This document shows, piece after piece, positions 4,998-64,000 of a DNA stretch of 64,000 nucleotides (the stretch's first letter is position 1; each line of letters begins with the position of its first letter). Source of the stretch: Ruditapes philippinarum (lineage: Eukaryota); assembly GCF_026571515.1 (NCBI RefSeq), contig NW_026863663.1:1-64000 (forward strand). Reading direction: 5' to 3'. Position numbers and translations under genes: made by a program. Under the pieces are notes generated by a model that saw nothing but the letters and a program-made list of their open reading frames with translations, searched no databases and was not told the origin of the DNA.

Positions 4998-7139
4998 TAA
5001 ACTTCGTTTCAAAAATCATCTGTTTTTGGACGGTATAAAACTTTGGAGGGCGCAATTTATATTTGGTTTTTTCTCCAGTTACCGAAGCTTTTAGATATGT
5101 TATGGAACATTAAAAGCTTATTTACCAAAAGCAACTCGTAAACATGTCTTTTAGCTATTAAAATGTTTTAATGCCTTTTAAAACACATTGTAATATCGCA
5201 TACAAATGACGTCAACTGTAAAAGCCATTTCAGCAATTTCTGAAGAAGAAATTATTCTGTTTACTAGTACAACTTATATTATATTCTAAAGTTGCCTTTA
5301 CTTCCTGTATTTTTTGCAGCAATTTTTGAGTTTTAATTTAAAAATAAAAAAATATTGATAGTTTGTGGAAAAAAAGGATGAAAACATGTTGTGTTTTTTT
5401 CCAATTTTGTCATTTGAAATCAACCATCGAAATTCCCAATGTGTTTGCATGTGGTAAAACGTGCATTGTTGATATTATTCTTTGACATCAACAATGCGGC
5501 ATTACTCCGACACATTCAGTGGCTGAACTAAATCGCCAGACAGATAGCAGCACAAATTGTTATTAATGTCTATGTGGCAGTAGGGAAAGCAGTTCGAGGA
5601 AGGCTTGAAAAATGTTTATGAAATAAAGACTTGTAAACATCTAAATGAAAAGAATGCTTAACATGGGCATGAACGGAACCTTAATCAAGCAACGCAAGTA
5701 CGCACGCGTCGACGCTTTGGCATTTTTTCAGTGAATCTCACACACACTAACGACGCACCTGTATGCCGCACATATGTATATCATATGCGAATCAATCGTT
5801 CATTTTAGATATGTATTTTTGATTTTTCTGACAGGCTCATAAATTATCTTCTGTTTTTTCAGCTAAAATGTAATTTTTCGAAATAATCATCAGATTTAAA
5901 AAAAAAAAAATACCTGCCGATTTGTATACACTCTCAGAGGAAACAAACATGTTCAAAGTTATTCACGCCAAACTCTATTCGCATGAAATGGTAAAATACA
6001 AAATAAACAATTTTGCTATTTGGATTTACTCCCCAGAAAATATGTTTAAATGGATGATATATTAAAACGTTTTTTTTAAATTCGTCGCTGATATGAAATA
6101 ATTGCTTAACCGACTATCAATCTATCATACACTTTAAATAACACGCACATGTTTTTTGCCATTCCTCAAAAAGGGGTGCCCCATTAAATTTTTTACATTT
6201 TCAAACTTTTTTGATTAAAGACTCTTAAAATGCAATAAAAAAAATTGAAGTCAGGCGAACGGGTATAAAAAATTGTAAATAAAACACCGAAGTTAAACTC
6301 TTCCTTAAAGCTCTTAAAATGCAAATGAATACCGAAAAAAACATAATTTGTTTTCAATTACTGGGAATTCTACGAGACAAACTTAGCCAATTTTACAATA
6401 TAAATATCAAATGACTTGCCATAGTGTATGTTTTTTAATAAATTAGATTTTCTCAAATATATTTAAATAGTTCTGCCTTTGGATAATAATCCGCCTATTT
6501 TTTACCTTGTCTGAAATACTCCTGCTTGACGTACGTAAAGTGCATATTTATTATAAACAGGACTGATTTTTAGAATTTTGGCCCCCCTATAAATGTTGAG
6601 GCATTTTTTTAAATACAAGATACATCTTGGTTTTTTTACCTATTTTTTAAGGGATGCTGAATTTTCCCATAAAGGTGGGTACCCAAAAAGGGAAAATTGA
6701 TCTTTCCCTTGAAAAGGCCAAATTTAAAAAGACCCCTAAAAAGGCCCCCAAATTTTTTTATCATAAAAGGGTGATAGGCAAATAAAAATTTTAAGGAAAG
6801 GGAAAAGGCCCGAAATTTGTCAAAAAGATTTTAGTTAAAAACAAATTTGACACCAAAAAAAAAACAAACCAAAATGGCCGAAAATCTAAGATGGCAGACA
6901 TTTTTCTATAGGCCAATATAACAGTAATATAGAAGTAATATTAAAAGATAGTACTGAAAACTTTAAGGCATTTTCGCAGCGAACACTACACTCTTTCCTG
7001 CCCTATCTTTCATGTATTTTATCTGGCACTCTATGCAAGCATATAGAGTGGCTACTCAGATGCCTACTTATATTTACACAGCGTATGTCTGAGGGGGTTA
7101 AAGACGTGTGCATGCAAAATATACATATAAAATTATTGG

Positions 7140-7860
7140 TTGTTTGTTTTCTGTTATCGGTCTCGTCTTCGTTCTTCTGTTATCGGTTCTCGTCGGTTCT
7201 CCCGATTGTTATCGGTCGTGACTTTCGTTCTTCGTTATTGTCTTCGTCGCAATTCTCTTGTTGTCAGTCTCTTTATTGGTCGTATCTTTGTTCATCTGTA
7301 ATCGTCCTAGTCTCAGTTTTTGTTGTTTTAATGTTCTTTTTATCGGTTCTCGCCTCGGTTTTTGTTATCGTTCCGTCGTCTTCTTCTTCGTTTCATCTGT
7401 GTTCTTCTGTTTTCGTATTTTTCCTTCTTTTTGTAACCAGTCTTGTCTCCGTTTTTTGTTGTCAATTCTGTATCGGTCTGGGCTCTATTTTCTGTTATCA
7501 ATCCTCGTTCCGTTTTTCTTGTGTTTTCGTTTCTGTTATCGGCCCCTGTCTCTGTTCGCTTTTGTTTTTTTCTTCCTGTTTATCGAATCCTTTCTCAGTT
7601 CGCTAGTTTTGTCCCTTCTGTTTCCGGTCGCCTGTCCTGTTATTTCTGTTCGGTCCTGTCCTCAAATCTTCTGTTATCGGTTCCCTCGTCTCTGTTCTGC
7701 CTTGTTGTCAGTCTTGTCTTTCGTTTCTTCTTTCTGTTTATCGGTCCGTCGTCTTCGGTTCCCTTGATTTAGGTTACTTGTTTCCTATTCCGTTTAAGGT
7801 CTTCTCTTGTATCTTTTCGTTTGCCGTCATTCTTGTCCTATGGTCCTGGTTTTGTCAGTC
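7140..7860. repeat. Degenerate T/C-rich, A-poor minisatellite-like tract with core tgttatcggt
   Basis: About ten copies of tgttatcg(g/t) embedded in ttc/gtc/ttg filler; accounts for three overlapping spurious ORFs. Confidence 0.7.
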
Positions 7861-7884
7861 TTTGAAAATCATTTATTCGTTCAG

Positions 7885-7959
7885 TGGAGTAGCGGGGGAT
7901 CGAACTCACGACCCCTTGATTTGTAAGGCAGACAGTGTTACCACTGCACCATAGCGCCC
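7885..7959 (-). mobile_element. tRNA-derived SINE head or pseudo-tRNA (Val-TAC-like)
   Basis: Reverse complement gggcgctatggtgcagtggtaacactgtctgccttacaaatcaaggggtcgtgagttcgatcccccgctactcca has A box TGGTGCAGTGG and B box GTTCGATCC, but the acceptor and anticodon stems pair poorly. Confidence 0.6.
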
Positions 7960-8867
7960 GCTCTGAATAATAACCATTTTTTGAAAATCCTTTATACATA
8001 AAATACTATTTCAATGGCTAACAAAGGGTGTATTACAATTATTTTTTAACACCTCTACTATGAAGCCAACCCACGGGGTGAACTTTTTTTATATATGGTC
8101 AAAGAAAAATATTACTCCATTTTTTTTACAAGTTAATATTTTTATAGATAACTGTTTTGCTGTTACTTTTTAAGATATCCTGGGTAAATGTATTGGAGGG
8201 TACCCGGAAATTCTAAAATGTATATCAAAATAATGTGACAATTTTCGATAGCTGCCATGGTATAGCAAGCACACGTAGCAATCTCCCGGTTTCAGACATT
8301 TTATGACTCGATGAAAATATGGTGTTGTTATTGTTGTTGTTGTTTTTATGGCCATCTTGAATTGACCTTTTGAAGGTCAAGGTCAATTTTATTTTCTTGG
8401 TATCCACCCTCATAGTCGTCAGCATACCCATATTAGGTTAAAGTGACATTATGCTCATATTTTCATAGTGAAGTTGTGCAGAATTGACTTTATATTTCAA
8501 AAGATTGACTGTCAAAATGGGGTTTGACCAATAGTTGATATTGGAAAATGTTTAGGATAAAATTATAAATCTGCCAAAAATTTAAAAAGACTGCCCCACT
8601 CTTTTTATAAACTAAGCGTTATACGTAAATTCTAATGGAAGTTTTCTGAAATTTCATTCGGATCTGTATGTTATTTATTGTTTATGCGAACTAAATTATT
8701 AAATTAAAAGGGATTATGGCAAAATGAAAACATTTTTTGATCTTCACCCGTTCACTCACTATATACGCTTGGATGGGCATAATGACGCTTTAAAACACTC
8801 AAGATATTACTTGTACTATAAAATGCCTCTAGCATTCATATTTTCTTAAAATCAGTCCTGTCTATTA

Positions 8868-9106
8868 CGATAATGATGATTATAACAAAAATGGTGACGA
8901 TGATGACAACAAAGGCGACGACAGCGATGATGATGAAGACGGCGATGATGACGACGACGATGATGATGACGACAGATGATGATGATGATGATGGTGATAA
9001 TGATGACGGCGATGATGATGATAACAATGAAACTAATGATCATAATGATAATGATGGTGATAATGTCGATGATATTATTGTTGTTGTTTTTGTTGATGAG
9101 GATGAT
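8868..9106. repeat. Degenerate (GAT/GAC)n microsatellite
   Basis: Direct reading: gatgatgatgacgacgacgatgat... Confidence 0.9.
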
Positions 9107-31782: not shown

Positions 31783-31911
31783 NNNNNNNNNNNNNNNNNN
31801 NNNNNNNNNNNNNNNNNNNNNNNNNNNNNNNNNNNNNNNNNNNNNNNNNNNNNNNNNNNNNNNNNNNNNNNNNNNNNNNNNNNNNNNNNNNNNNNNNNNN
31901 NNNNNNNNNNN
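31783..31911. other. Assembly gap (129 N)
   Basis: Run of N. Confidence 1.
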
Positions 31912-40189: not shown

Positions 40190-40195
40190 CATCTG
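40190..40195. repeat. Left target-site duplication CATCTG
   Basis: Identical hexamer at 47859-47864, both directly abutting the inverted-repeat ends. Confidence 0.9.
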
Positions 40196-41969
40196 AGAAA
40201 GTATGGGCCCGCCGGTTTAGCCCCAAAAACTGCCCCGGGGCGCGGCCCCCAAATTTTGGGATTCAAATTTTTTAGAATAAACATAAATCGTTCTATTTTT
40301 GAGAAATGGGGATAAACCCTTTCCTTTTTTTTAAAGGAATGCATTATGTTCTTTTTTTAAAAATTCCCCCGGAAAAGTAAAACGGAGCTAAACTCGAAAT
40401 ACACGATTTAGGGTTGAATCGCGGACATTGGGGGTTAAAGGTCCTGGGCCCCTAAAAGGGAAGAAAAATTTAAACCCTTTTATGAAAATAAAAGGAAATT
40501 TTTGTAAATAGAAAACGTGCTTAAAAATTTTAATTTAAATAAAAAAATATTTTTGGGTTTTCAAAAAAAAATTTTTGATAAAAATATAACTCTTTTAAAC
40601 TTACCTACATTTAAAAAGGAAATGACTGTAAATTAGGAAAAGGGGTTTTTTGGGGTGACTGCGCTTTGGATCTATTTTTTAGTCGCGGAAATTTCACAAA
40701 CCACCAGGAAACTTTTTTAAATCACCCCCACGCGGGTGTCAATGAAAAAGAAAAAGGAAATTAAGTAAGTCGCCGCTCATCAAAGATTCACAATACCAAA
40801 GCGGAAACTATTTAAACCCAAAAACCCCTTTTAAATTTTCTTTAAACTAAAAAAATAATTTTTCTTTAAATTTCACAAAAAAAAATCTTTTAAACCCTTT
40901 TTCAAACGCGGGGAAACCGCCCAATTTACATCCCCAAACCTTAGCCCTAGTTTTTACATAACCTAGCGGAACTATGTTGAACAAAAACCCCCTTTATCCT
41001 TCGTTACAAAATATAGCTTTTAAATTAAATTTCTTTACCCTTTTAAAGGGCCAGGGGAACCATTAAGAAAAAAACTAAATTAACGGGGAAAAATTGCTAC
41101 GCATGCATTAACATATTTTAACACTTCATATATTGTACCGTTCCTTTTAAGTGCATGCTACGGTAAACTGATTTGCATATTTTTAAACACGGTTGCCCTT
41201 AGCAACTGGTCAAATGTTGTGATTTTTATGAACACTTCAGATTCTTATTTTTTATACAAAAATAAATTTTTTTAAATGAATACACTTATGTATAAGAAAG
41301 TTGTAAACTGATTTTAAATGAAAATTTATAATACATTTAAGCTATTAACCGGTTTTTTTATCGTTTGGGCAACCGTTTACGCTCAAAATTTTTGAGATAA
41401 AGTCGTTATAAGATAGAATAAACCGAAAGCTTTCGTTTTGACCCGGCTTCTCGATTCGATTTTCAGCCGTTTTTGAGTTATGACGCAAGAGCGATTTTAA
41501 ACCCTAAATTGCGAAAAGTCAATAAAAACGTTAGAAACTTTTTAAACCAATCGATTCGTCTCGTCGCGCTGATTAAGAAAATATATAGTTTTATGGGTTT
41601 ATCTTTTTACCGTTTTCGAGTAATTTCGAGTTTAAAGTCACCGGAAGTGACGTCACAGAAATTTCAAAATCGATTTCTTCGTTATTACTTGACCGAATAT
41701 ATACGTGTTTGGTATCGTTGGAAAGCATTTTACCACACCTGTTACCGGACGCTATTCAAAAAGCCATTGGACCGGAAACTGAAATCACTGAAGCGTAAAA
41801 AACGTGTTTTCTGTACCACGTCCCGGACCGAACTAAGGCGTGTTTGGTATCAAACGAAATGTCTTAAGCCGCCTCTTTATGAATACGGACTAAAATCGAA
41901 ATTAAAATCACTCATGCGTAAAAATCATTAAAATGAACTAAAAAAAGCTTACCCCCAGTCTTTACTCCT
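40196..41969 (+). repeat. Left terminal inverted repeat
   Basis: Reverse complement of 46201-47858. Near-identical from about 41100 to 41969 and recognisable but homopolymer-distorted over 40196-41100. The match ends at aagcttacccccagtctttactcct. Confidence 0.93.
41641..41656 (+). promoter_or_regulatory. Composite ETS-CRE motif CCGGAAGTGACGTCAC in the TIR (mirror copy at 46510-46525)
   Basis: Exact overlap of the ETS core CCGGAAGT and the CRE palindrome TGACGTCA; function untested. Confidence 0.45.
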
Positions 41970-43128
41970 TGCCTATCAAACTATTTATGACAAGTTACTA
42001 TAGGCCTATCGTTAAACGGTCCAGTTACGACAGGTTTAAACCCCGGTATTGCTATTTTTTGATTAGGCCAATGAAAATTGAAGAAACGAGGTTTTTTTAA
42101 ACCATTTTTTTTAAAGTTCATAAAACCCTTAGATTTATATTGCCGTTTTGATAAAGATCTCTGCGAGTAGATACAGAAAATGTATTATTATATGGATATA
42201 CTTTTACTGTTTTCTGAGATAGGAGAAGTTTCAATATGGGCAGACCAAAATCAACTCATGCGGAAAAAAGCGCATAAACTTTTTTTTCGTTTATGAACGA
42301 AACATAGTTATGTTTGGTATAAAATTGGAAGGTCTTGAGGGAAGTAAAAATTTTAGTCACGGCGATAAAACCCCGGAGGGTGAAATCCCCAAATTTGCGC
42401 AAAAAAAATATATTTTTTTGGTTACAAAGGGGCAACCAAAAATACGAAAAATGATTTTTAATTTTTTAAACTACCAATTGAAAGAACATTTTAAAAACCC
42501 CCTTTTTAAATTAAACACCCCACTTATCGTTTCGTTTTCCCAACTGTTACAGGGGTTAAATTACGAAACAGCGTTTTTTTAAACCCAAAATTTTTTAAAA
42601 AGTTTAAAAAAAACCCCTTAATTTTTTATACCGTTAAAAAAGATCTGACGAGTAGATTAAAAAATGTATAAGTTTTTTGGGTCTATTTTTATAAAGGTTA
42701 CTGGGGGATATTACAGATATAGCCCTTTATTTAAATTTTAAAACCCCCCAAAGGGTTAAAATAATGCGTTATTGCACTACATTGTTCAAAAAAATATTCA
42801 AACGACTGGTGGTGTTCTTTATTTATGGGTCGATTTTATCCATCTTGGTATCAAATTAAAAGGTATTTAAGAGTTCATTCAAACGCTGTTGATAATAAAG
42901 TTCATACTGGAAGTCAAAATCACTACTCATGCGTTAAATGGACAATTTTCTCCGCTTATTTCTTGGACAATAAACGATGGGTATGTTGCATTATATCAAA
43001 CGAAAGGTCTTGACAAATGCGACAAGCTGAAACTAACAAACCCGCAAGTGAAACCAATCACGCGTAAAAAATCATTAAAATAACTAAAAATACAAGATTT
43101 AACCCCAACCTTTAACTCCTCGCTATCT

Positions 43129-43217
43129 AAATCGGGCAATGGAAATGAAATTGCTAACGGTTAACGTAATAAATGGAGTAAAAGGAAGCGTTCGGATTGG
43201 TCACTGATAAGACAGTA
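43129..43217 (+). repeat. Inner inverted-repeat segment, pairing with 46117-46200
   Basis: aataaatggagtaaaag(g)aagcgttc.gatt.gtcactgataagacagta is present in inverted orientation in both arms. Confidence 0.85.
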
Positions 43218-43288
43218 TTCTGATTGACTCGAAAAGCAGGTTGGACAACCGTTCGCTTGCAATGTGTTAAAAAATACATAAAACAAGT

Positions 43289-43526
43289 GAGGAGGAGGAG
43301 GAGGTGGAGGAGGAGGAGGTGGGAGGAGGAGGAGGAGGAGGAGGTGAAGGAGGAGGAGGAGGGAAGGGAGGGGAGAAGGTGAAGAAGGTGGAGGAGGAAA
43401 AAGAAGAAGCAGGAGGGGTAGGAGGTGTAGGAGGAAGAGGAGGAGGAGGAGGTGGAGAAGGAGGAGGAGGAGGAGAAGAAGGAGGGGAGGAGGAGGAGGA
43501 GGTGGTGGCGGAGGAGAAGGAAAGGA
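43289..43526 (+). repeat. (GGA)n polypurine tract upstream of the gene block
   Basis: Direct reading; about 240 nt of almost pure G/A. Confidence 0.92.
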
Positions 43527-43620
43527 ATTTTTTTTTCCTGTATCTGCAAACGTAAGAAATCGTTAAATAAACTTGTAAGAAGGCAGATTTCTTCGGCTTT
43601 TATAAATCTTGCTAACTAAA

Positions 43621-45046
43621 ATGAATAAGTGTTCTGTATGTAATCAGGTGTTCTCTAGGGCTTGACAACATGCGAAGACATGAACGTTATATGCATAGCA
43701 GTAAACGACACAGTTTAAAAAGTAATTCTCTATTACAAGAAGTAACTCAAGGGAAAACTTCAGAAAAGATGACATTTCACCACCCTTTTTCCATGGTTGT
43801 TTCCGGACCCAGTGGTAGTGGAAAAAACAGAATGGACCAGAACACTGCTGTTATCTAACCTAGTACGTCAGCCCGCCTGAACGCATCATATGGTGTTTCG
43901 GACAATGGCAACCTCTGTACGATGAACTTCAACGTAGAATACCTTGGATAGAATTTGTACGAGGTATCCCCGACTACTTGAATAATCCCGAGTACATCAA
44001 CGCCAGCAAAAGGAAACTTTTTGATCGTTTTTGACGATTTGATGACAGAGGCCAAATGTGACCAGAGAATCGCCGATCTTTTTACCAAAGGCAGTCACCA
44101 CAGGAACATATCTATCGTGTATCTGACTCAAAATTTATTTCCTCAAGGAAAAGCCTGCAGAGATATCGCGTTGAATACGCAGTACCTAGTATTATTCAAT
44201 AACCCTATTGACAGACAGCAGGTGGCTACGTTAGCGAGGAGAATATATCCTTCCTCCTATAACATCTTTATGAAACGCTTCGAACGAGCGACATCGAGAC
44301 CTCACGGTTATTTGGTAATAGATCTTAAATCCAGTACACCTGAACATAATCGTTTACGTAATGACATTTTTGAGGCCAATAATCCTGAACTTAGAAAACG
44401 GATGGATATACCTCCGGAGAACCAGTTACACGGTGAAGGTAATTCGTTTGACACGACGATAAATGATGATGATGATGATGATGAAGATGCAAAATGATGA
44501 TGAAGATGCAGATGATGATACTGATAAAGAGCATATATAGAGGGTGGTGATAGAGGTGTAAAGAGACAAGCCTTTTTTATGGGACCTCCTGGTAAGCGTA
44601 TAAAAGAAGAGCTCAAAGAAGAACGCAAAACGTCATGACATATGGGATAGAAGATTTCAAAAGCCTTTACGACAGTCTTGTAAAGAACAATTTAAAGACG
44701 GGCTAAACAGTTACATAGATCAAGAGTACTCTTTTGATGAGGCTTATGCTCGCACTGCTAATGATGCGTTGCCACATTTGAGAAAGAAGATGAGACAAAA
44801 TTATGCCCAGTTTTCTGATTGACTTTTACGCATTACAAGAGGACCCCACTCAGCAACAAATACTCCAGTCAGCGAAGAAACTTAGACATCAGCACGACAT
44901 GACCATTGAAGAATCAATCCAACAAGCCGTTAAACTTAGAAAAGACCGGTTTTGAGGCGTTATGGCCTAATCACGACATCAAGGATTTTAATGGTGAGAA
45001 TAATAAAGATGATGACAATGAAGATCACAAATCAGATGGAAAATAA
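43621..45046 (+). CDS. C2H2 zinc finger + A32/FtsK-HerA-type DNA packaging ATPase + acidic linker + helical C-terminal domain (~471 aa after removing 10 homopolymer +1 bases)
   Basis: Reconstructed MNKCSVCNQVFSRLDNMRRHERYMH (C2H2), HPFSMVVSGPSGSGKT (Walker A), LIVFDDLM (Walker B), LFTKGSHHRNISIVYLTQNLF and PHGYLVIDL, typical of Polinton ATPases. The ATPase call is firm; the fusions depend on frameshift correction. Confidence 0.85.
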
Positions 45047-45092
45047 AAATATCGTAAGAATGATCTTTGCTCCTTTACTTTCAAAACACAAC

Positions 45093-45480
45093 ATGGGTTC
45101 CATAGAGGTGTACGATCATAAACAACAAAAATGGGTGCCGTATATAGATGACCCAGATAAATGGTATCAGCATTTTAAAGATTTGAGAGACGGTTACGTG
45201 ACACCCGATCATAGAGGCCGGTACATTATAGGTAGCGGTAATTCGCGTAGAAGGCTCGTGACACTAGAAACAAAGCTCAAAGAAACGGAGAAAAAGCTTA
45301 AAGAAACGGAAGAGAAGCTTCAAAATGCACAACGCCCTGTGGTTAATATGGTTAGCCCCGTGGCTCAAGCGGTTGAAATGGCAAAGTCGGAAGTAAAAAC
45401 GATTACGTGATTCCAATATAGAAACGTCGGCACCTAAGAAGCGTAAAACGGATATTGACTGGACTCGGTTCACTTTCTAA
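45093..45480 (+). CDS. Small Polinton-associated protein with coiled coil and basic tail (~128 aa after one frameshift correction)
   Basis: MGSIEVYDHKQQKWVPYIDDPDKWYQHF...IIGSG...LETKLKETEKKLKETEEKLQ...VNMVSPVAQAVEMAKSEVKR...APKKRKTDIDWTRFTF; the stop lies 1 nt before the protease ATG. Confidence 0.65.
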
Positions 45481-45481
45481 A

Positions 45482-45917
45482 ATGGATAATTACCAGCTAG
45501 AAAATATATTGAAAAGATACCCAGTGACAGTGTGTGCGGCTGATGAAATTCGTAAACAAAACGGAAGATTTGTGATTTCAAACACAGATACGAGTAACGG
45601 ACCGGGAAAACATTGGGTAGTTTTCTATTTTCCTAGACACGGACCTTACGAATATTTCGACTCGGTTGGAAATAGTCCAGAAAAGCTATGGCGTGGGATT
45701 TGATAAGATACTTAACAAGAAATATCTCAGAAACTACGGCCAACTACAACAACTTTCGTCTAATGTGTGCGGCCTCTACTGCGCATACTATGTCATAAAA
45801 CGATATCAGGGAAAGACTTTGAAAAACATCGTCAAAGAATTTGATCCGTATCAGAAGAAGCACAATGATCGTTCAGTAGTGTTTAAAATGAAGAAACTAA
45901 TTAGAAAAAAGAAGTGA
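45482..45917 (+). CDS. Adenain-like (adenovirus/Polinton-type) cysteine protease (~144 aa after one frameshift correction at 45681-45684)
   Basis: NTDTSNGPGKHWVVFY (His), YEYFDSVG (Asp), QLQQLSSNVCGLYC (Gln, Cys); catalytic set intact. Confidence 0.92.
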
Positions 45918-45960
45918 CAAAACAAGTATATCACTAGTTTTAAAACAATGTTCTGTATGA

Positions 45961-46002
45961 AATAAAAATATAAATTACCATGTGTTTTGTTTTTTATTTA
46001 TT
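45961..46002. terminator. Probable bidirectional polyadenylation region
   Basis: AATAAA at 45961 followed by a GT/T-rich tract, with TTTATT (minus-strand AATAAA) at 45993 and 45997. Confidence 0.5.
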
Positions 46003-47086
46003 CCCATAAGAATAGCCTTATGCTACTGCTATTGCCCCGTAATACAAGACAACTAGTCCCCGCCTCTCTCTGTTTAGTCCAATCATGTTGCAGTTAGACT
46101 AATGAAAATGTGCAAGTACTGTCTTATCAGTGACTAATCAGAACGCTTCTTTTACTCCATTTATTACGATTAACCGTAGCGATTCATTCATTTCCGATTT
46201 AGGAGTAAAGACTGGGGGTAAGCTTATTTTAGTTATTTTAATGATTTTTACGCATGAGTGATTTTAATTTTCGATTTTAGTCCGTATTCATAAAGAGCGG
46301 CTTGAGACATTTCGTTTGATACCAAACACGCCTAAAATCGGTCCAGGCGTGGTACAGAAAACACGTTTTTACGCTTCAGTGATTTCAGTTCCGGTCCAAT
46401 GGCTTTTTAAAAAGCGTCAGGTAACAGGTGTGGTAAAATGCTTTCCAACGATACCAAACACGTATATATTCGGTCAAGTAATAACGAAGAAATCGATTTT
46501 GAAATTTCTGTGACGTCACTTCCGGTGACTTTAAACTCGAATTACTCGAAAACGGTAAAAGATAAACCCATAAAACTATATATTTTCTTAATCAGCGCGA
46601 CGAGACGAATCGATTGGAAAACAGTTCTAACGTTTTTATTGACTTTCGCAATTTAGGGTTTAAAATCGCTCTTGCGTCATAACTCAAAAACGGCTGAAAA
46701 TCGAATCGAGAACCCCGGGTCAAAACGAAAGCTTTCGGTTTATTCTATCTTATAACGACTTTATCTCGAAAATTTTGAGCGTAAACGGTTGCCCAAACGA
46801 TAAAAAACCGGTTTATAGCTTAAATGTATTATAAATTTCATTTAAAATCAGTTTACAACTTTCTTATACATAAGTTATTCATTTAAAATTTATTTTTGTA
46901 TAAAAAATAAGAATCTGAAGTGTTCATAAAAATCACAACATTTGACCAGTTGCTAAGGGCAACCGTGTTTAAAATATGCAATCAGTTTACCGTAGCATGC
47001 ACTTAAAAGGAACGGTACAATATATGAAGTGTTAAAATATGTTAATGCATGCGTAGCAATTTCTCGTTAATGAGTTTTTACTTAAT

Positions 47087-47348
47087 GGTCGCTGCATTTA
47101 AAAGGATAAGATTAATGAAAAGCTATATTTATTAACGAAGGATAAAGGGTTTTTGTTCAACATAGTTCCGCTAGGTATTGTAAATCTAGACTAAGTGGCG
47201 ACTGTACTTGACGGTCGCTGCGTTTGAAAGGATAATAGATTCTTTTGTGATTAATGAAAAGTTATATTTAGTAACGAAGGATAAAGGGTTTTTGTTCAAA
47301 ATAGTTCCGCTAGGTATTGTGAATCTAGACTGAGCGGCGACTGTACTT
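47087..47348. repeat. Tandem duplication of about 126/136 bp within the TIR
   Basis: ggtcgctgc...taacgaaggataaagggtttttgttcaa.atagttccgctaggtattgt.aatctagact.ag.ggcgactgtactt occurs twice (starts 47087 and 47213). Confidence 0.9.
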
Positions 47349-47716
47349 AATGCCTTTTTCTTTCATTGACACCCGCGTGGGGCTGATGAAATAGCTCCTG
47401 GTGGTTGTGAAATACCGCGACTAAAAATAGATCATGCGCAGTCTACAAGAACGTTACGCTATGACAGTCATTTCCTTACTAAATGTAGGTAAGTAAACGA
47501 GTTATATTTTATAAATATTATTTATTTTGAACATATTAAAAAAAAACTATTTGTTTTTTTATTTATAAATTAAGCACGTATCTATTTACAAACATTTCTT
47601 TTATCTGTCATAATGTTAATTATCTCTCCGTCTAGGGCCGAGGACCTGACCCTCAATGTCCGCGATTCAAGCCCTAAATCGTGTATACGAGTCAGCTCCG
47701 TATACTTCCGGGAGAT

Positions 47717-47802
47717 TAAAAATAGAACGATAATGTCATTCTAAAAATAGACGGATGATCACATTCTCAAAATAGAACGATGATGTCATTCTAAAAATAG
47801 AA
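47717..47802. repeat. Subterminal 25-bp tandem repeats (about 3.4 copies)
   Basis: Units of consensus taaaaatagaacgatgatgtcattc at 47717, 47742, 47767 and a partial copy at 47792. Confidence 0.9.
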
Positions 47803-47858
47803 TCCAATATGGCGCCGCGCATGCGCAGTCGTGGCCCTAAACCGGCGCCTATACTACT

Positions 47859-47864
47859 CATCTG
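47859..47864. repeat. Right target-site duplication CATCTG
   Basis: Matches 40190-40195. Confidence 0.9.
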
Positions 47865-58689: not shown

Positions 58690-61200
58690 AAACATGTGGA
58701 CACAAATTAACCAAAAGCATTAGTGATGATTTAGCTGTCAGACAAATGCTGTCAATGCTTGCATATCGACATTGGAATAATCATGATCCTATGAAAGAGA
58801 ATGAATTCTACGCGAAATATCTCATCGATTTCACGTCAGGGAAGTCTCAATAAATCAAGAAATGGACTTGTTTTTTTTCTCCAGACATTGTGAAGACAGA
58901 TATTGCATTATAGCTTAACCAGATTTTTGTAATTTTGTAACAAAATGATAAAGATATTTAGGTAAAGACACGAGATATTCGAGTTTGGTATTTTTATTGT
59001 TTATTCTCGAACTAAGACAATAACTCAACAAGAAAATAGCTTTTGCTATTAATTAGGTTTTCTCAGATGAAATGTTGCAATTTGATTAAGATAATTATTT
59101 TTATTTTCGCTTGGTTTTTTTATTCTACAAGTAAATTAAAACTATTGCCTACGCTTTTAAATGAATATCACTGTATGGTTAACCGTATTACCGGATAGTT
59201 CATCATATTTCGAATGTTCAACTAACCTAACAACGCGCCGTGTGATATTTCAGTCGCTCAGTGCCGCAGAGATGTTAAGAGCTCCTCTTGCAATTTATCA
59301 TGACGGTTATAACACGTGCGATTAAGTTTCGGATGAATCCAAACTCAAAAAATATTGATAGGACATTGTACACGCTGTAATTCTCAGACGTATCTGTCAA
59401 ATACTCTGTCAATAATAGTTGCAATATTAAACGGGAAAAGTCTTCCGTCGAATTGATTTTATTGACAAGTTCTTCTTTTCGAATATGTTATGTCAAAGAA
59501 AGTACATACTGTAGTAATTCAATATTTCTCTGTTAAGAATGGTTAATGTGCCATTATGTTTACCGAAAAGAAAAACCTTGTCTGGAGGTCAATATACTTT
59601 ATTATGTCCATTGCTGCATGAACAGTAGATCTCACACAACCAAATGTTTGTGTGAGGTAAGATCAATTATATTAAAAAAGCATATACATCTTTGAGGATA
59701 TATCTTATTATTTTGTTTTGCGCGCTTGGTTATACAGCACAACAACATAGTTTAGGTCATAATCCGTCGAATCAAAAATATGGTTTTTGATAACTTCAAA
59801 GCACCACCATCTCACCTTCTGGAGTTATGAGATTCATAGACACCAGTAGAAATGATAACACATTTGTGATGCATCGTAGCGCTTTAAGACAAATGCCTGA
59901 CTACAAAGACAAAGGGTTTTTATAAACAGTTTTAAGCATTATGAGAATGTACACTTTAATCTGGTCTCAAATTTCAAATACGAAATATTCCAAAACATTT
60001 TTGCCATACGCTTTGGTTTGCATGGCTTTGTTAAATGCATATTACATAATTGTGTATTGCACAGTAAAAGTTTTGTCTGTCTGACTTATGGAAAAGAGCT
60101 AAAACTATTACCTACTTTATCAAAAAGATACCGAAATTCAAGATCTACTCTATAAGGCATAAACTAATTTAATCTTCCCCCAGACAAGTTTAATGTAAAC
60201 ATATCGCATTAAATAAAGAAAGAATTCAGAAGGGAGTAAACGGGACAGGCTTTCTCGAGTATTGATCGATGTCTTTAAGATTTTATTTCGGCGTATATAG
60301 AATTTCTAGTCCCAACACATCTAGCAATTTATCATAAAAACATTTTGTGGATGTTAGATAGGTCATAAAGCTTTTGAAATACTTCAAGGTATGACAATTT
60401 TAAAAGCAAATTGGAAAGCTTCGAGAGAGTTAAATTCCCAGTTTATGTGCTAATTAAATCCCAAGGCATATTATCTACAATTTTACCCCCTGGATCTACT
60501 AAGATATATGCTTATTCTAGTCATTTGTAAGAAAATCAAGATGTAGTCGTTCGATTTTTGATAATGGGAATAGTTCAGTTTTATATTGCTGTATATAATC
60601 CAATTTGAATATTAAATGGAAATAACAGTAAACAATCTTAAATATAATTTCCATAAAGTGTCTGTTTTCTCAACAATGAACGTGAAAATCAGCATTTCCA
60701 TAACAGATTATTAATGTCATCGTCAATAAGTCTTTGTATTTAAGAAGTGAGCTTTCATTCAATCCAAAATTCTCACGTCTTCATAGAGCTGACTCATTGT
60801 GTCTGGGTGATAATATGATATCTATATAATGTTCTGCATGTATCTATTTATTCTTGATTGTACTTCTTATACACATGGTTTGATCATTCATTATCTTCAA
60901 GACATAATCAATGTAAATATTCGTCACATTTTACATATTGGTAACTATCGTAAGCAAGGCAAAATAATCAACAAAGATTTGCTGTTGTGCTACTAATACC
61001 ATTAATATTGCTTTCATCTTCATATATACTTTTAAATCCTAAACCAAATAGTTACACAATTTCATATACGTTCTGCCAGTTCTTTCATATCAACCCGCCT
61101 CTTAATTATATATGTACCATTTGTCATTTTCCATGAATAAACATTAAGTCTCGACAGGCTATTATTAGATGTAAAATAATTTTAGTATATGTTATTTGGG
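58690..61200 (-). pseudogene. Decayed paralog array unit 4 (partial)
   Basis: Blocks at 58761-58835 and 59239, and 60020-60500 duplicating 57220-57660. Peptide REIDEIFRVEFILFHRIMIIPMSIC. Confidence 0.5.
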
Positions 61201-61399
61201 CTACTGCGAGCATACGGACATTATTAAACTCATTGTAATCTATTGCGATAAGGGAGTTAATTGTCTGTAATGACAAGAGTGACTTACACATTCAGTATCA
61301 TAAACCTTTTATCTGTAGTATTTCTTTAATAGGCTTGTTTAGCTTTCAATTTTAGATTATCTACTTTGGGATATCTAGATTAAAATTGGGAGTTGAAGT

Positions 61400-61516
61400 T
61401 AGTCAGCCCACAGAATACAGCCTTGTCAGATAACACGGTAGTACACTCTGACCTGATTCTGTACTAATGGCAAGGGCTAATCTAAACGCGTTTTGGTTCC
61501 AGCAGGGTAGGCGTTT
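61400..61516 (+). mobile_element. Degenerate bivalve MITE fragment
   Basis: gtcaga..acacgg...ctgacctg..tct.tact..tggcaa.ggctaatc...ttggttccagcagggtaggcgtt resembles a common clam MITE end (recalled, not searched). Confidence 0.4.
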
Positions 61517-61614
61517 GCAGAAAGTCCTCAAATAATTTTATAAAAACATGATAAAATGAAATAAGATTGATATATCGTTGTTTGTCTTCACCGTGGTCAT
61601 TTCCCTTCCTATCC

Positions 61615-61677
61615 CCCTCCTCTTCTTCCTCATCATCATCATTATCATCATTATTATCATCATCAGTATCATCATTA
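61615..61677. repeat. (TCA/TCC)n microsatellite
   Basis: Direct reading. Confidence 0.8.
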
Positions 61678-61939
61678 AAATATACTACAAAAATGTACAG
61701 GTATACTTTATTATCTTTTAATCATTATAGCGAGACGATAAACAAATAAAAACAAACATAAGCAATATTCGTAAAAATACTCCGAAATGAATGTGGCTCA
61801 ACTGTTTACAAAGATATCAGAAAACTGACCCCTTACCATGTTCACTATTTAAAGCTATACCGGAGCATACATCCATTTGTATAATTTTTAACTCGTATAC
61901 TTAATTAAATGTTTTAGCGTTTATGTTCTGCAAATAACA

Positions 61940-62480
61940 AAACTACGCTATTCAAAATGGTAATTGAACAGTATCAAGCTCATAACAGCGGGTAAGAATT
62001 TAAACGCATGACTTGTGTTCTTTTCCATTTGATTTGATAATTGATACAGCTATTATTTAAAGAACGCTTATAAAACAGCAAGCACCTGCCTTTTCTTTTC
62101 ACTTTCAGAAGTATTATCTGATCGTGGCAAGCAATTTAGACTTATTTTAATGGATCTTTGACGATCTTGTTAATGTGAATAACACGTTTATCATCGCGTC
62201 TGATACTTTCTTCGTCTGTACTTTTCAATATCAATTGTTCATTTATTGCAGTAGCACTGAAATGTAATATTTCCCCCTTGTGGTTTCTCATTTGTTTATA
62301 AATGTATTAATCCTTCCATTCGTGCCAGGATCAGTGGCCTTCAATATCGTTGGTAATGCTACTTGTGAACATTTATATACAAAGCTTAAAGTATTGCATT
62401 GATTTCTTTTCCAGCCAACTAAGTTCAGACCTTTTATGAATATTTATAAGAGTATTTATTGGTCTGACATAATCATTAAC
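61940..62480 (-). pseudogene. Decayed paralog array unit 5 (divergent fragment)
   Basis: Peptides KRKGRCLLFY and TDEESIRRDDKRVIHINKIVKD; block cagac...tatgaatatttataag...attggtctg shared with 34115 and 52170. Confidence 0.45.
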
Positions 62481-62934
62481 CATTGTTTGGGACACGGCAT
62501 GTAAATTTATTGCGTATAAAATCGAGAGAATAATAACGCTGTCGCTTGTATAATTTACTTTACATTTTTCCTGATCAGTAAATCTTAAATTGAAAATTTG
62601 AAATAGAAGGGGAAAACCTTATTTTGCAAAATAAATTAGGATATTATTCCATTTCAAAGAAATTATAAGAATTAAAATAATATAATAGTCTTAAACTATA
62701 AGTGAAAGGTCTTTGCGACTGTTTAAAACTCTACATTATCAATAGTGCCTTAAAAGATATTATAGTTGCTTTTAAAAAAAACTTTCTAAATTAAATGTAT
62801 AAACATCTAGTATCTATTTTTCAAGTACCTTCAAAATTGTTATAATATTTTTAAAGATAGGATTATTTGTATGGTTGTCATGTTAAGGTCAAGGATTATG
62901 GCCATTATGACTCATAAGAGCATCTTAATTCTTA

Positions 62935-63128
62935 ACAACGCTGTTGGTTCCCGCTCTTTTATGATAGGAAGCTATCGAGCTAGCTTTCAGAACGTTGATA
63001 GTTCCAGTCAGATATCCTCTCATGCTTGAAATAATGCCGCAAGGATCACCTGGGGTTTTACTGCACCCACAAGGTAAACTTGAAATTCGTAATATGACCT
63101 TAACTTAAAATCCAACTAAAAGAAAAAA
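62935..63128 (+). mobile_element. SINE family A copy (degenerate)
   Basis: aggaagctatcgagctagct...tgaaataatgc.gcaaggatcacctggggt...atatgacctt...aaatccaac. Confidence 0.55.
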
Positions 63129-64000
63129 CATCTTATAAAAGCATCGCTATTGCGATGATTGCTGTCAATATATCACAATCACATAAAGCTAAAGTGTACG
63201 TCGGAAACAAATAACTGCAGTGCAAATAACAGACATTTATATTAAAATTCCAATTTATGACTGCCTTCTCTCTTGTGGAACATAATTTATATCTATAATA
63301 AAACATAGTTAATTGTTCAAGAATGAACACCTCATAACCTTAGTACAGTTAGGATACTCATAAAATTCTTTGGCATTACTTTCTCTATTTAATGAGTATA
63401 GAAGCTCCTTTATAGTATCAAATTGAAATAAGATATTCTCTAGAAATCTGTACCATTCACTTAAATAAGAGTTCAAAATTATTAATATTGAAAGAGGTGT
63501 TGTTCGCATTATTTATGGATGTCTTTAATGTCTTTTTTATCAATTAATGATCTTAAGAAAGGATCAGATATACTGTTAACCTTTCAGATTTCCTCAAAAA
63601 TATGTTGGTTTGAACAAATCAACTGCGACCAAAGATAATTTGGGAAGATCACTTTATAATAAACATTGAGGAAAACATTCAAAGCAGATTGCGTATCATC
63701 ATTTTCAGTATCGTTTCGTGAAGGATATCGGTGCTTCCGTAAGAAGTGGAAATAATTTAAGTATATGAAATTGCTATATTAAACAACATACTGGTATTAA
63801 TTTGCACATAAGCGGCAGTGAAATTATATTTAATATTATTCTTGGTATTACGTATTTACATCCTTTGGATAATGGTATAAATGATACGTAAAGTTTATGA
63901 GAAAACGAAGAGAGTCAGAATGGTCATGAATTATTCATGCCCTTTACAGACAAATATCTTTGTATCACTGAAATATAATAGTTTCCACTGTATGAATATT

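Follow-up and report, generated by a model that had tools for sequence, protein, structure and literature searches.

A zinc finger-tagged A32-type ATPase in capsid-less Polinton derivatives of Ruditapes philippinarum, and the triplet tracts beside its gene

The window analysed here, 64,000 nucleotides of Ruditapes philippinarum DNA at the start of contig C12150, contains an interrupted coding region in which pieces of a C2H2 zinc finger, an A32-type ATPase and an acidic and helical region follow one another. This raises the questions of whether it is one gene, what kind of element carries it, and what a zinc finger might do on such an ATPase.

An interrupted gene in a small Polinton-type element

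The gene spans 1426 nt, from the start codon at 43621 to the last stop codon at 45044-45046, limits that the first-pass annotation had placed correctly. It is not one open gene in the window; the finger halves, the Walker A region, the Asp run and the helical pieces lie in changing frames. The features of the locus are as follows.

40190..40195, no strand: left target-site duplication, 6 bp, identical to 47859-47864
40196..41969, + strand: left terminal inverted arm, error-rich, 85% identical to the right arm; similarity to the longer arm of C5902 reaches about 42938
43051..43217, + strand: inner inverted piece, matching 46117-46264
43289..43521, + strand: (GAG)n tract with about 78 repeats, 100 nt before the start codon; the Asn3/Arg6 finger is predicted to bind it
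43621..45046, + strand: finger-A32 ATPase-acidic-helical gene, broken at about 11 places here, open in 10 of 22 loci
43621..43700, + strand: single C2H2 zinc finger, interrupted in this copy; the substitution-free sibling has Arg-1, Asp2, Asn3 and Arg6
43769..44375 (approximate ends), + strand: A32/FtsK-HerA ATPase domain, Pox_A32 in open siblings, fold like STIV B204
44376..44560 (approximate ends), + strand: acidic linker, predicted disordered, with an Asp run at 44461-44519
44600..44965 (approximate ends), + strand: conserved domain of about 125 aa, helical and without a Pfam family; present as well in stand-alone finger-acidic-helical proteins
45093..45480, + strand: ORF at the PW position, 59% identical to the full-size ORF, one break near 45.4 kb
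45482..45917, + strand: adenovirus-like maturation protease, with His/Asp/Cys in open siblings, one break near 45.7 kb
46201..47858, + strand: right terminal inverted arm, with the Polinton (ACT)2 motif at its end
47859..47864, no strand: right target-site duplication

The element occupies 40196-47858 (7663 bp) and has a 6-bp duplication, Polinton-type ends and long arms, of which the right end and duplication are clean and the left end is error-rich. It holds three genes only, those for the fused ATPase, the PW-position ORF and the protease, plus the GAG tract. Nine of ten fetched copies of this small type, here called mini elements, are complete insertions of 6.3-10.1 kb with a 6/6 target duplication, and four of the ten also have a BIR gene. 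No polymerase match was found in the window element or the ten mini copies, nor within 12 kb of any of 71 loci, and there was no profile match to major or minor capsid protein, integrase or PZ in the window or the 20 stretches searched; the capsid profiles, built from 47 and 60 frames, do match the full-size elements.

The mini element is a non-autonomous derivative of Polinton lineage. Like Polintons/Mavericks (adintoviruses) it has (AGT)2//(ACT)2 ends, long inverted arms and a 6-bp duplication, and it shares with them an A32 ATPase (Pfam PF04665), an adenovirus-like protease and the PW-position ORF, which in full-size Polintons lies between the minor and major capsid genes (PMC8097293). It differs from them in having no polymerase, integrase, capsid or PZ gene and in its size, 6-10 kb versus 16 kb. 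Among mini copies, purifying selection acts on both the protease and the PW-position ORF, with dN/dS values of 0.13-0.14 (two pairs between subfamilies) and 0.19-0.32 (six pairs), respectively; the ORF has no usable Atlas match. In one mini subfamily the protease is broken, and the opposite strand holds an additional frame of 179 aa without a Pfam match (L023:7742-8278, L028:1994-2530, L030:1685-2221).

Set against open natural copies of this genome, the window gene carries about 11 frame-changing indels: six fall within its first 400 nt, including one inside Walker A, and five between 44.49 and 44.95 kb. The first-pass annotation had proposed that single-base homopolymer corrections restore one frame, and all of the parts are present, in separate frames; its corrected length of 1416 nt is unlike that of every natural copy seen (open copies encode 453-469 aa). 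Homopolymer runs of at least three are touched by 11 of 13 indel events relative to L017, against a background of 23% of positions, and there are no substitutions relative to L020 over 43621-43899 or to L004 over 44400-45046. The two arms of the window element are separated by 105 indel events at 85% identity, compared with 94-99% for the longest arm matches in ten sibling copies (87% in the outer part of C5835). Short-read contigs, which represent a pool of many copies, show an indel difference at seven of the 11 break sites among the rows shown (eight further rows left out). The homopolymer bias, the lack of substitutions, the arm divergence, the short-read differences and the position of the window at the start of its contig make the breaks look like assembly error, and they are most likely marks of unpolished long-read sequence in a gene that is genuine and under selection, carried by a non-autonomous Polinton derivative. 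Real decay of this copy is less likely, though the pooling of many copies in the short-read contigs tempers this.

The window gene is also a mosaic, L020-like 5' of about 44.3 kb and L004-like 3' of it, within one target duplication. Stretches of the gene are represented in contigs from two RNA-seq runs belonging to one study, and one contig of 950 nt reaches from the ATPase to the helical domain; these contigs may stem from transcripts or from carried-over DNA. Elsewhere in the window are a strongly T-rich, A-poor kilobase at 7001-8000 (AT skew -0.54, low-complexity frames), a separate (GAT)n tract of 49 units at 8926-9073, and a stretch of Ns at 31783-31911.

Relatives of the fused protein and of the element

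A search of the same genome gave 151 matches (150 of 303 candidates scored). Ten of 22 loci examined encode finger, ATPase and helical domain in a single open frame of 453-469 aa, and all three are present in 41 of the best 120 of 240 database homologues, where the other builds are ATPase plus helical domain (49), finger plus ATPase (15) and ATPase alone (15); this architecture count is partly circular, the profiles having been built from 52 of the 120 rows. The fusion that had been read from the broken window copy is therefore real in natural open copies, and it is a mark of the whole clade, which rules out a fusion private to the window copy. A host gene fusion is ruled out by the element ends and the copies, and a chance zinc-finger motif by conservation.

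Two Pfam families had been suggested for the protein. Pox_A32 is found above its cut-off of 22.8 in three of three open copies (25.3-29.7 bits), whereas zf-C2H2 stays below its cut-off of 25.2 in the same three (16.9-21.2 bits); the Cys2-His2 spacing is intact, and the finger is modelled with a pLDDT of 86-87. In alignment A1 the Walker A Lys is present in 49 of 52 sequences, and the Walker B Asp, sensor Gln and Arg finger in all 52. The model from this alignment has confident finger, ATPase (pLDDT 74-92) and helical domains with disordered linkers between them (overall pLDDT 73.6, pTM 0.47); a single-sequence fold, with pLDDT 41, was unusable. The best Foldseek PDB matches of the ATPase are to the STIV packaging ATPase B204, and A32-like proteins also match; in VIA-align B204 reaches Z 13.9 (rmsd 3.5, 179 aligned), tied with other FtsK-HerA members.

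Among open copies (ten pairs of five copies) the ATPase has dN/dS values of 0.06-0.12 and the helical domain values of 0.15-0.45; for the finger, four of the ten pairs are computable, with 0.10-0.33. The ATPase, with intact motifs, is under purifying selection, and the product is likely a DNA-packaging ATPase that would form rings as other members of its family do. The helical domain has no Pfam family and no usable Atlas match, and hhalign gives probabilities under 1% (control 100%) against the PZ, PM-like, PW-position, minor capsid and protease families; structure searches barely covered this domain. A search for shorter homologues at close range returned mostly fragments. One 6519-aa database protein (P0305) has seven matches to the helical domain.

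The capsid-bearing Polintons of this genome carry an ATPase of 202-231 aa, in agreement with the stand-alone form of roughly 200-250 aa given in the first-pass annotation. Unlike that form, the mini-element ATPase is about 460 aa long with finger and helical domain, and belongs to another clade. It is 34-40% identical to the short ATPase of the presumptive helper, and in a tree of 56 chosen rows with at least 150 aligned positions each the long ATPases form one clade (100/98, 37 of 56 rows) apart from the short ones under a midpoint root. Viral contigs searched yielded three distant ATPases and nothing for the stand-alone finger-acidic-helical form described below, and genome contigs searched yielded distant short ATPase forms.

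Stand-alone relatives of the helical domain are about 200 aa long and are built finger-acidic-helical, with 32 matches in the same genome. In the twenty of these loci that were fetched, ATPase, capsid, integrase and polymerase gave no match; inverted arms are present in many, and Polinton ends with a duplication in three. All 21 fingers read, from 19 of the 20 loci, are of the Asn3/Arg6 type and stand beside GAG-rich arrays, with GAG densities of 19-40 per 300 nt, where the highest value among 109 background pieces is 17. Pairing of finger and tract thus needs no motor. Judged from sequence, the conserved core is a finger-tagged protein beside a matching repeat, to which an ATPase appears to have been joined in one clade. 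Among these loci (L251-L270 of G000, for example C813:78376-84322 and C6456 near 59000-63500) are 4-6 kb inverted-arm elements with the finger-acidic-helical gene only; the arrays are of an 8-mer with about 150 units in one family and of 21-mers in another, and the ends of one family do not resemble the (AGT)2 motif.

Four full-size elements of 16.1-16.8 kb have the same end sequence as the mini elements. Their gene set comprises polymerase, integrase, capsid genes, PC4, BIR, a TBP-like gene, the PW-position ORF, protease and a short stand-alone ATPase; the integrase of full-size Polintons (L059-L062, L069-L072) bears a chromodomain. Over about 1.6 kb the right arm of the window element is 98.1-98.5% identical to each of the two arms of G000:C9423, a full-size Polinton of 16.6 kb whose frames are themselves broken. 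Within 12 kb, a major capsid match was found for none of 71 mini-clade loci and none of 18 other long-ATPase loci, but for 21 of 25 short-ATPase loci, where the 71 and 25 are loci of the own-genome search and the 18 the best of a further search, remaining matches being excluded; 121 of 523 candidates were scored in the capsid search, and the copies are not independent. The mini element is thus helper-dependent in its anatomy, without a capsid of its own and with cis ends common with a capsid-encoding element, and to this extent the earlier idea of a satellite is borne out.

A second long-ATPase type in this genome, which falls within the long clade of the tree, has polymerase, long ATPase and integrase only, measures 9.1-10.7 kb, and has complete ends in three of five cases. 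In the 9-11 kb elements without a capsid or protease match (L051-L058, L063-L068) the polymerase frames begin with C2H2 fingers, and several of the long ATPases contain another Cys/His motif, ahead of the helical domain. A minor capsid gene follows the long ATPase in five of ten short contigs from other hosts, contigs too short for more, so that the capsid-free state is shown for this genome only. Two polymerase genes lie close together in inverted orientation at G000:C1197:49933-58606.

Five further derivatives (L073, L074, L076, L077 and L078) are gene-less and consist almost entirely of inverted arms, with lengths of 4-6.7 kb and clean target duplications in four of the five; the tract is kept in four and absent in one. 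Their existence shows that the genes are dispensable in cis for integration. Non-autonomous Polintons are represented in Repbase, and terminal-inverted-repeat elements have MITE-like derivatives. As in MITE-like families, the ends of the mini family are common with an autonomous partner and gene-less versions are present in this genome, but the mini family differs in keeping three genes under purifying selection. Nine capsid-less Polintons described in PMC4028283 had also lost ATPase and protease, whereas the mini elements keep both under selection.

Finger residues and neighbouring triplet tracts

Of the 45 fingers matched in the 120 homologues, 41 have Arg-Asp-(Ala/Asn/Val)-Arg at helix positions -1, 2, 3 and 6. 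The top triplet tract was called within -800 to +500 nt at 83 loci, 68 of which have a readable finger. Asn3 fingers have a GAG tract in 20 of 20 cases and Ala3 fingers a GTG tract in 13 of 14, the remaining one being cut by a contig end with GTG on top but below threshold; the 25 Val3 fingers have GCG (16), GTG (4) or no tract (5), and Trp-1/Asp3 fingers have GCT in six of six, all of these being counts per locus that ignore kinship, from related copies in which finger and tract, at most a few hundred bases apart, are linked. There are three misfits, one finger each: Thr3 with GAG, Ser3 with no tract, and Trp-1/Ser3 with a mixed tract. The first pairs to be noted were Asn-GAG and Ala-GTG; the Val and Trp/Asp classes emerged later. 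GAG, GTG, GCG and GCT tracts were found in 0 of 97 background pieces, full-size elements included.

Each pairing recurs in mutually unrelated backbones: Asn3 in the window type, the L054 type, L243 and L095 (other host); Ala3 in the L013 type, L052, L058, L221 and L091 (other host); Val3 in the L004 type, L220, L068 and L098 (other host). The Trp/Asp class occurs in the L063 type and the L094 type (other host). One single backbone has two states, Ala3 with pure GTG tracts and Val3 with mixed GTG/GCG (L038, L039, L228, L229). In mini copies the tract is upstream and non-coding, about 100 nt before the start, and in the 9-kb type it is in-frame (poly-Pro, poly-Gln) within 500 nt downstream of the start, next to the divergent polymerase promoter; its orientation varies among loci.

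The finer rules relating finger residues to bases are those of the Choo-Klug and Wolfe-Pabo code. According to PMC1920264, Arg6 specifies G and Asn3 specifies A, and a helix with Asn3/Arg6 is found on a GAG subsite; where the subsite has a central pyrimidine, residue 3 is Ala or Val. Since residue 3 of the finger co-varies with the adjacent tract, the finger is predicted to read the element's own DNA, as the first-pass annotation had suggested in more general terms, and we consider it very probable that it binds its own tract.

What the finger and motor may do

We favour a helper-dependent satellite in which the finger-motor would select its own DNA for packaging into full-size Polinton capsids, a proposal that we rate at about even odds. 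In its favour, the motor, the protease and the PW-position ORF are all under selection in elements that lack a capsid, and the tract has persisted in gene-less copies. The helper polymerase and integrase would act on the terminal arms common to both elements, and several fingers on an ATPase ring facing a long tract could provide avid, self-specific binding despite a reader of only three bases. Once on the tract, the motor would attach to helper capsids, maturation would be aided by the protease and the PW-position protein that the element has kept, and tract-bearing gene-less derivatives would ride on the motor in trans. Counting against packaging are the finger-acidic-helical elements that pair with GAG arrays and have no ATPase, the position of the tract in mini copies, directly upstream of the gene's own start as for self-regulation, the varying tract orientation, the dispensability of the genes in cis for integration, and the gene-less derivative without a tract.

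Self-regulation is indeed the main competing account: the finger and acidic stretch could be a self-activator on the element's promoter, with the fused ATPase as cargo that has a separate job. We regard this as rather unlikely, although the site of the tract, shortly upstream of the start in mini elements and near the divergent polymerase promoter in the 9-kb elements, speaks for it, as does the indifference of the tracts to orientation. The single-gene elements without ATPase pair with GAG at the densities given above, a pattern that suits self-regulation and packaging alike. Adenovirus IVa2 also acts as a promoter factor that binds major late promoter elements (PMC4404914). Self-activation does not explain the strong selection on ATPase, protease and PW-position ORF in capsid-less elements or the tracts kept in four of five gene-less derivatives, and a one-gene element would gain little from it unless its product also acts on its own DNA. 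That the finger loads the ATPase on its own DNA for a task other than packaging, such as action at helper replication or integration sites or transfer between nuclei or cells, seems improbable. FtsK on KOPS and Streptomyces TraB on its plasmid repeats are analogues of such loading, the long clade is confined in this genome to capsid-less elements, including the 9.1-10.7 kb polymerase/integrase elements without protease, and VirB4, DndH and HerA are level with B204 in VIA-align (Z 13-15). Against it, two virion-morphogenesis genes are under selection in mini copies, and sequence and Foldseek group the ATPase domain with viral packaging ATPases.

Very improbable, in our estimate, is that the elements are decayed deletion derivatives in which finger and tract are paired by descent alone, with no functional link. 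Finger and tract are tightly linked and move between subfamilies as a module, and many copies are broken, as such descent would have it; but the four residue-tract pairings follow the code, each in two to five unrelated backbones and in different element types and hosts, one backbone has Ala3 with pure GTG versus Val3 with mixed GTG/GCG, and all three genes are under purifying selection.

Packaging by a satellite has precedents among phages, where P4 and SaPI/PICI redirect helper packaging. Like these, the mini element is small, integrated and without capsid genes, and it carries a packaging component that would serve its own DNA. It differs in being eukaryotic and Polinton-derived with an endogenous helper, and the redirection is in its case inferred. 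Adenovirus IVa2, which must bind the A repeats of the packaging domain and also acts at a promoter (PMC4404914), resembles the mini motor as predicted here, a packaging ATPase on repeated cis sites of its own genome. IVa2, however, serves a complete virus and needs L4 partners, whereas the specificity of the mini motor is predicted from one fused C2H2 finger and a co-switching microsatellite. We found no description of the fusion, of the finger/tract pairing or of such satellites in the literature on Polinton derivatives and fusions, with supplements and Repbase outside the scope of the search.

To our knowledge Polinton particles have never been seen in animals, and we know of no explanation of how genomes are chosen for packaging. 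The selection on packaging and maturation genes in capsid-less elements argues that Polinton particles form in the host and are exploited, and one finger with a matched triplet tract, in four finger types with four tracts, offers a cheap and direct handle. More tentatively, and with somewhat less than even confidence, we propose a widespread guild of capsid-less Polinton satellites in animal genomes, with gene-less, one-gene, three-gene and polymerase-bearing forms and the finger on a motor or an adaptor, that would pirate helper capsids by means of a reprogrammable finger/microsatellite lock and key, with finger and microsatellite changing in concert while lineages compete for the helper. Screens that require capsid genes and a length of at least 10 kb, for example that in PMC11131425, would miss such elements.

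About 31 Polinton-like loci with capsid genes (L174-L204) were also found in one assembly filed as a bacterial MAG, and this DNA is probably eukaryotic or viral.
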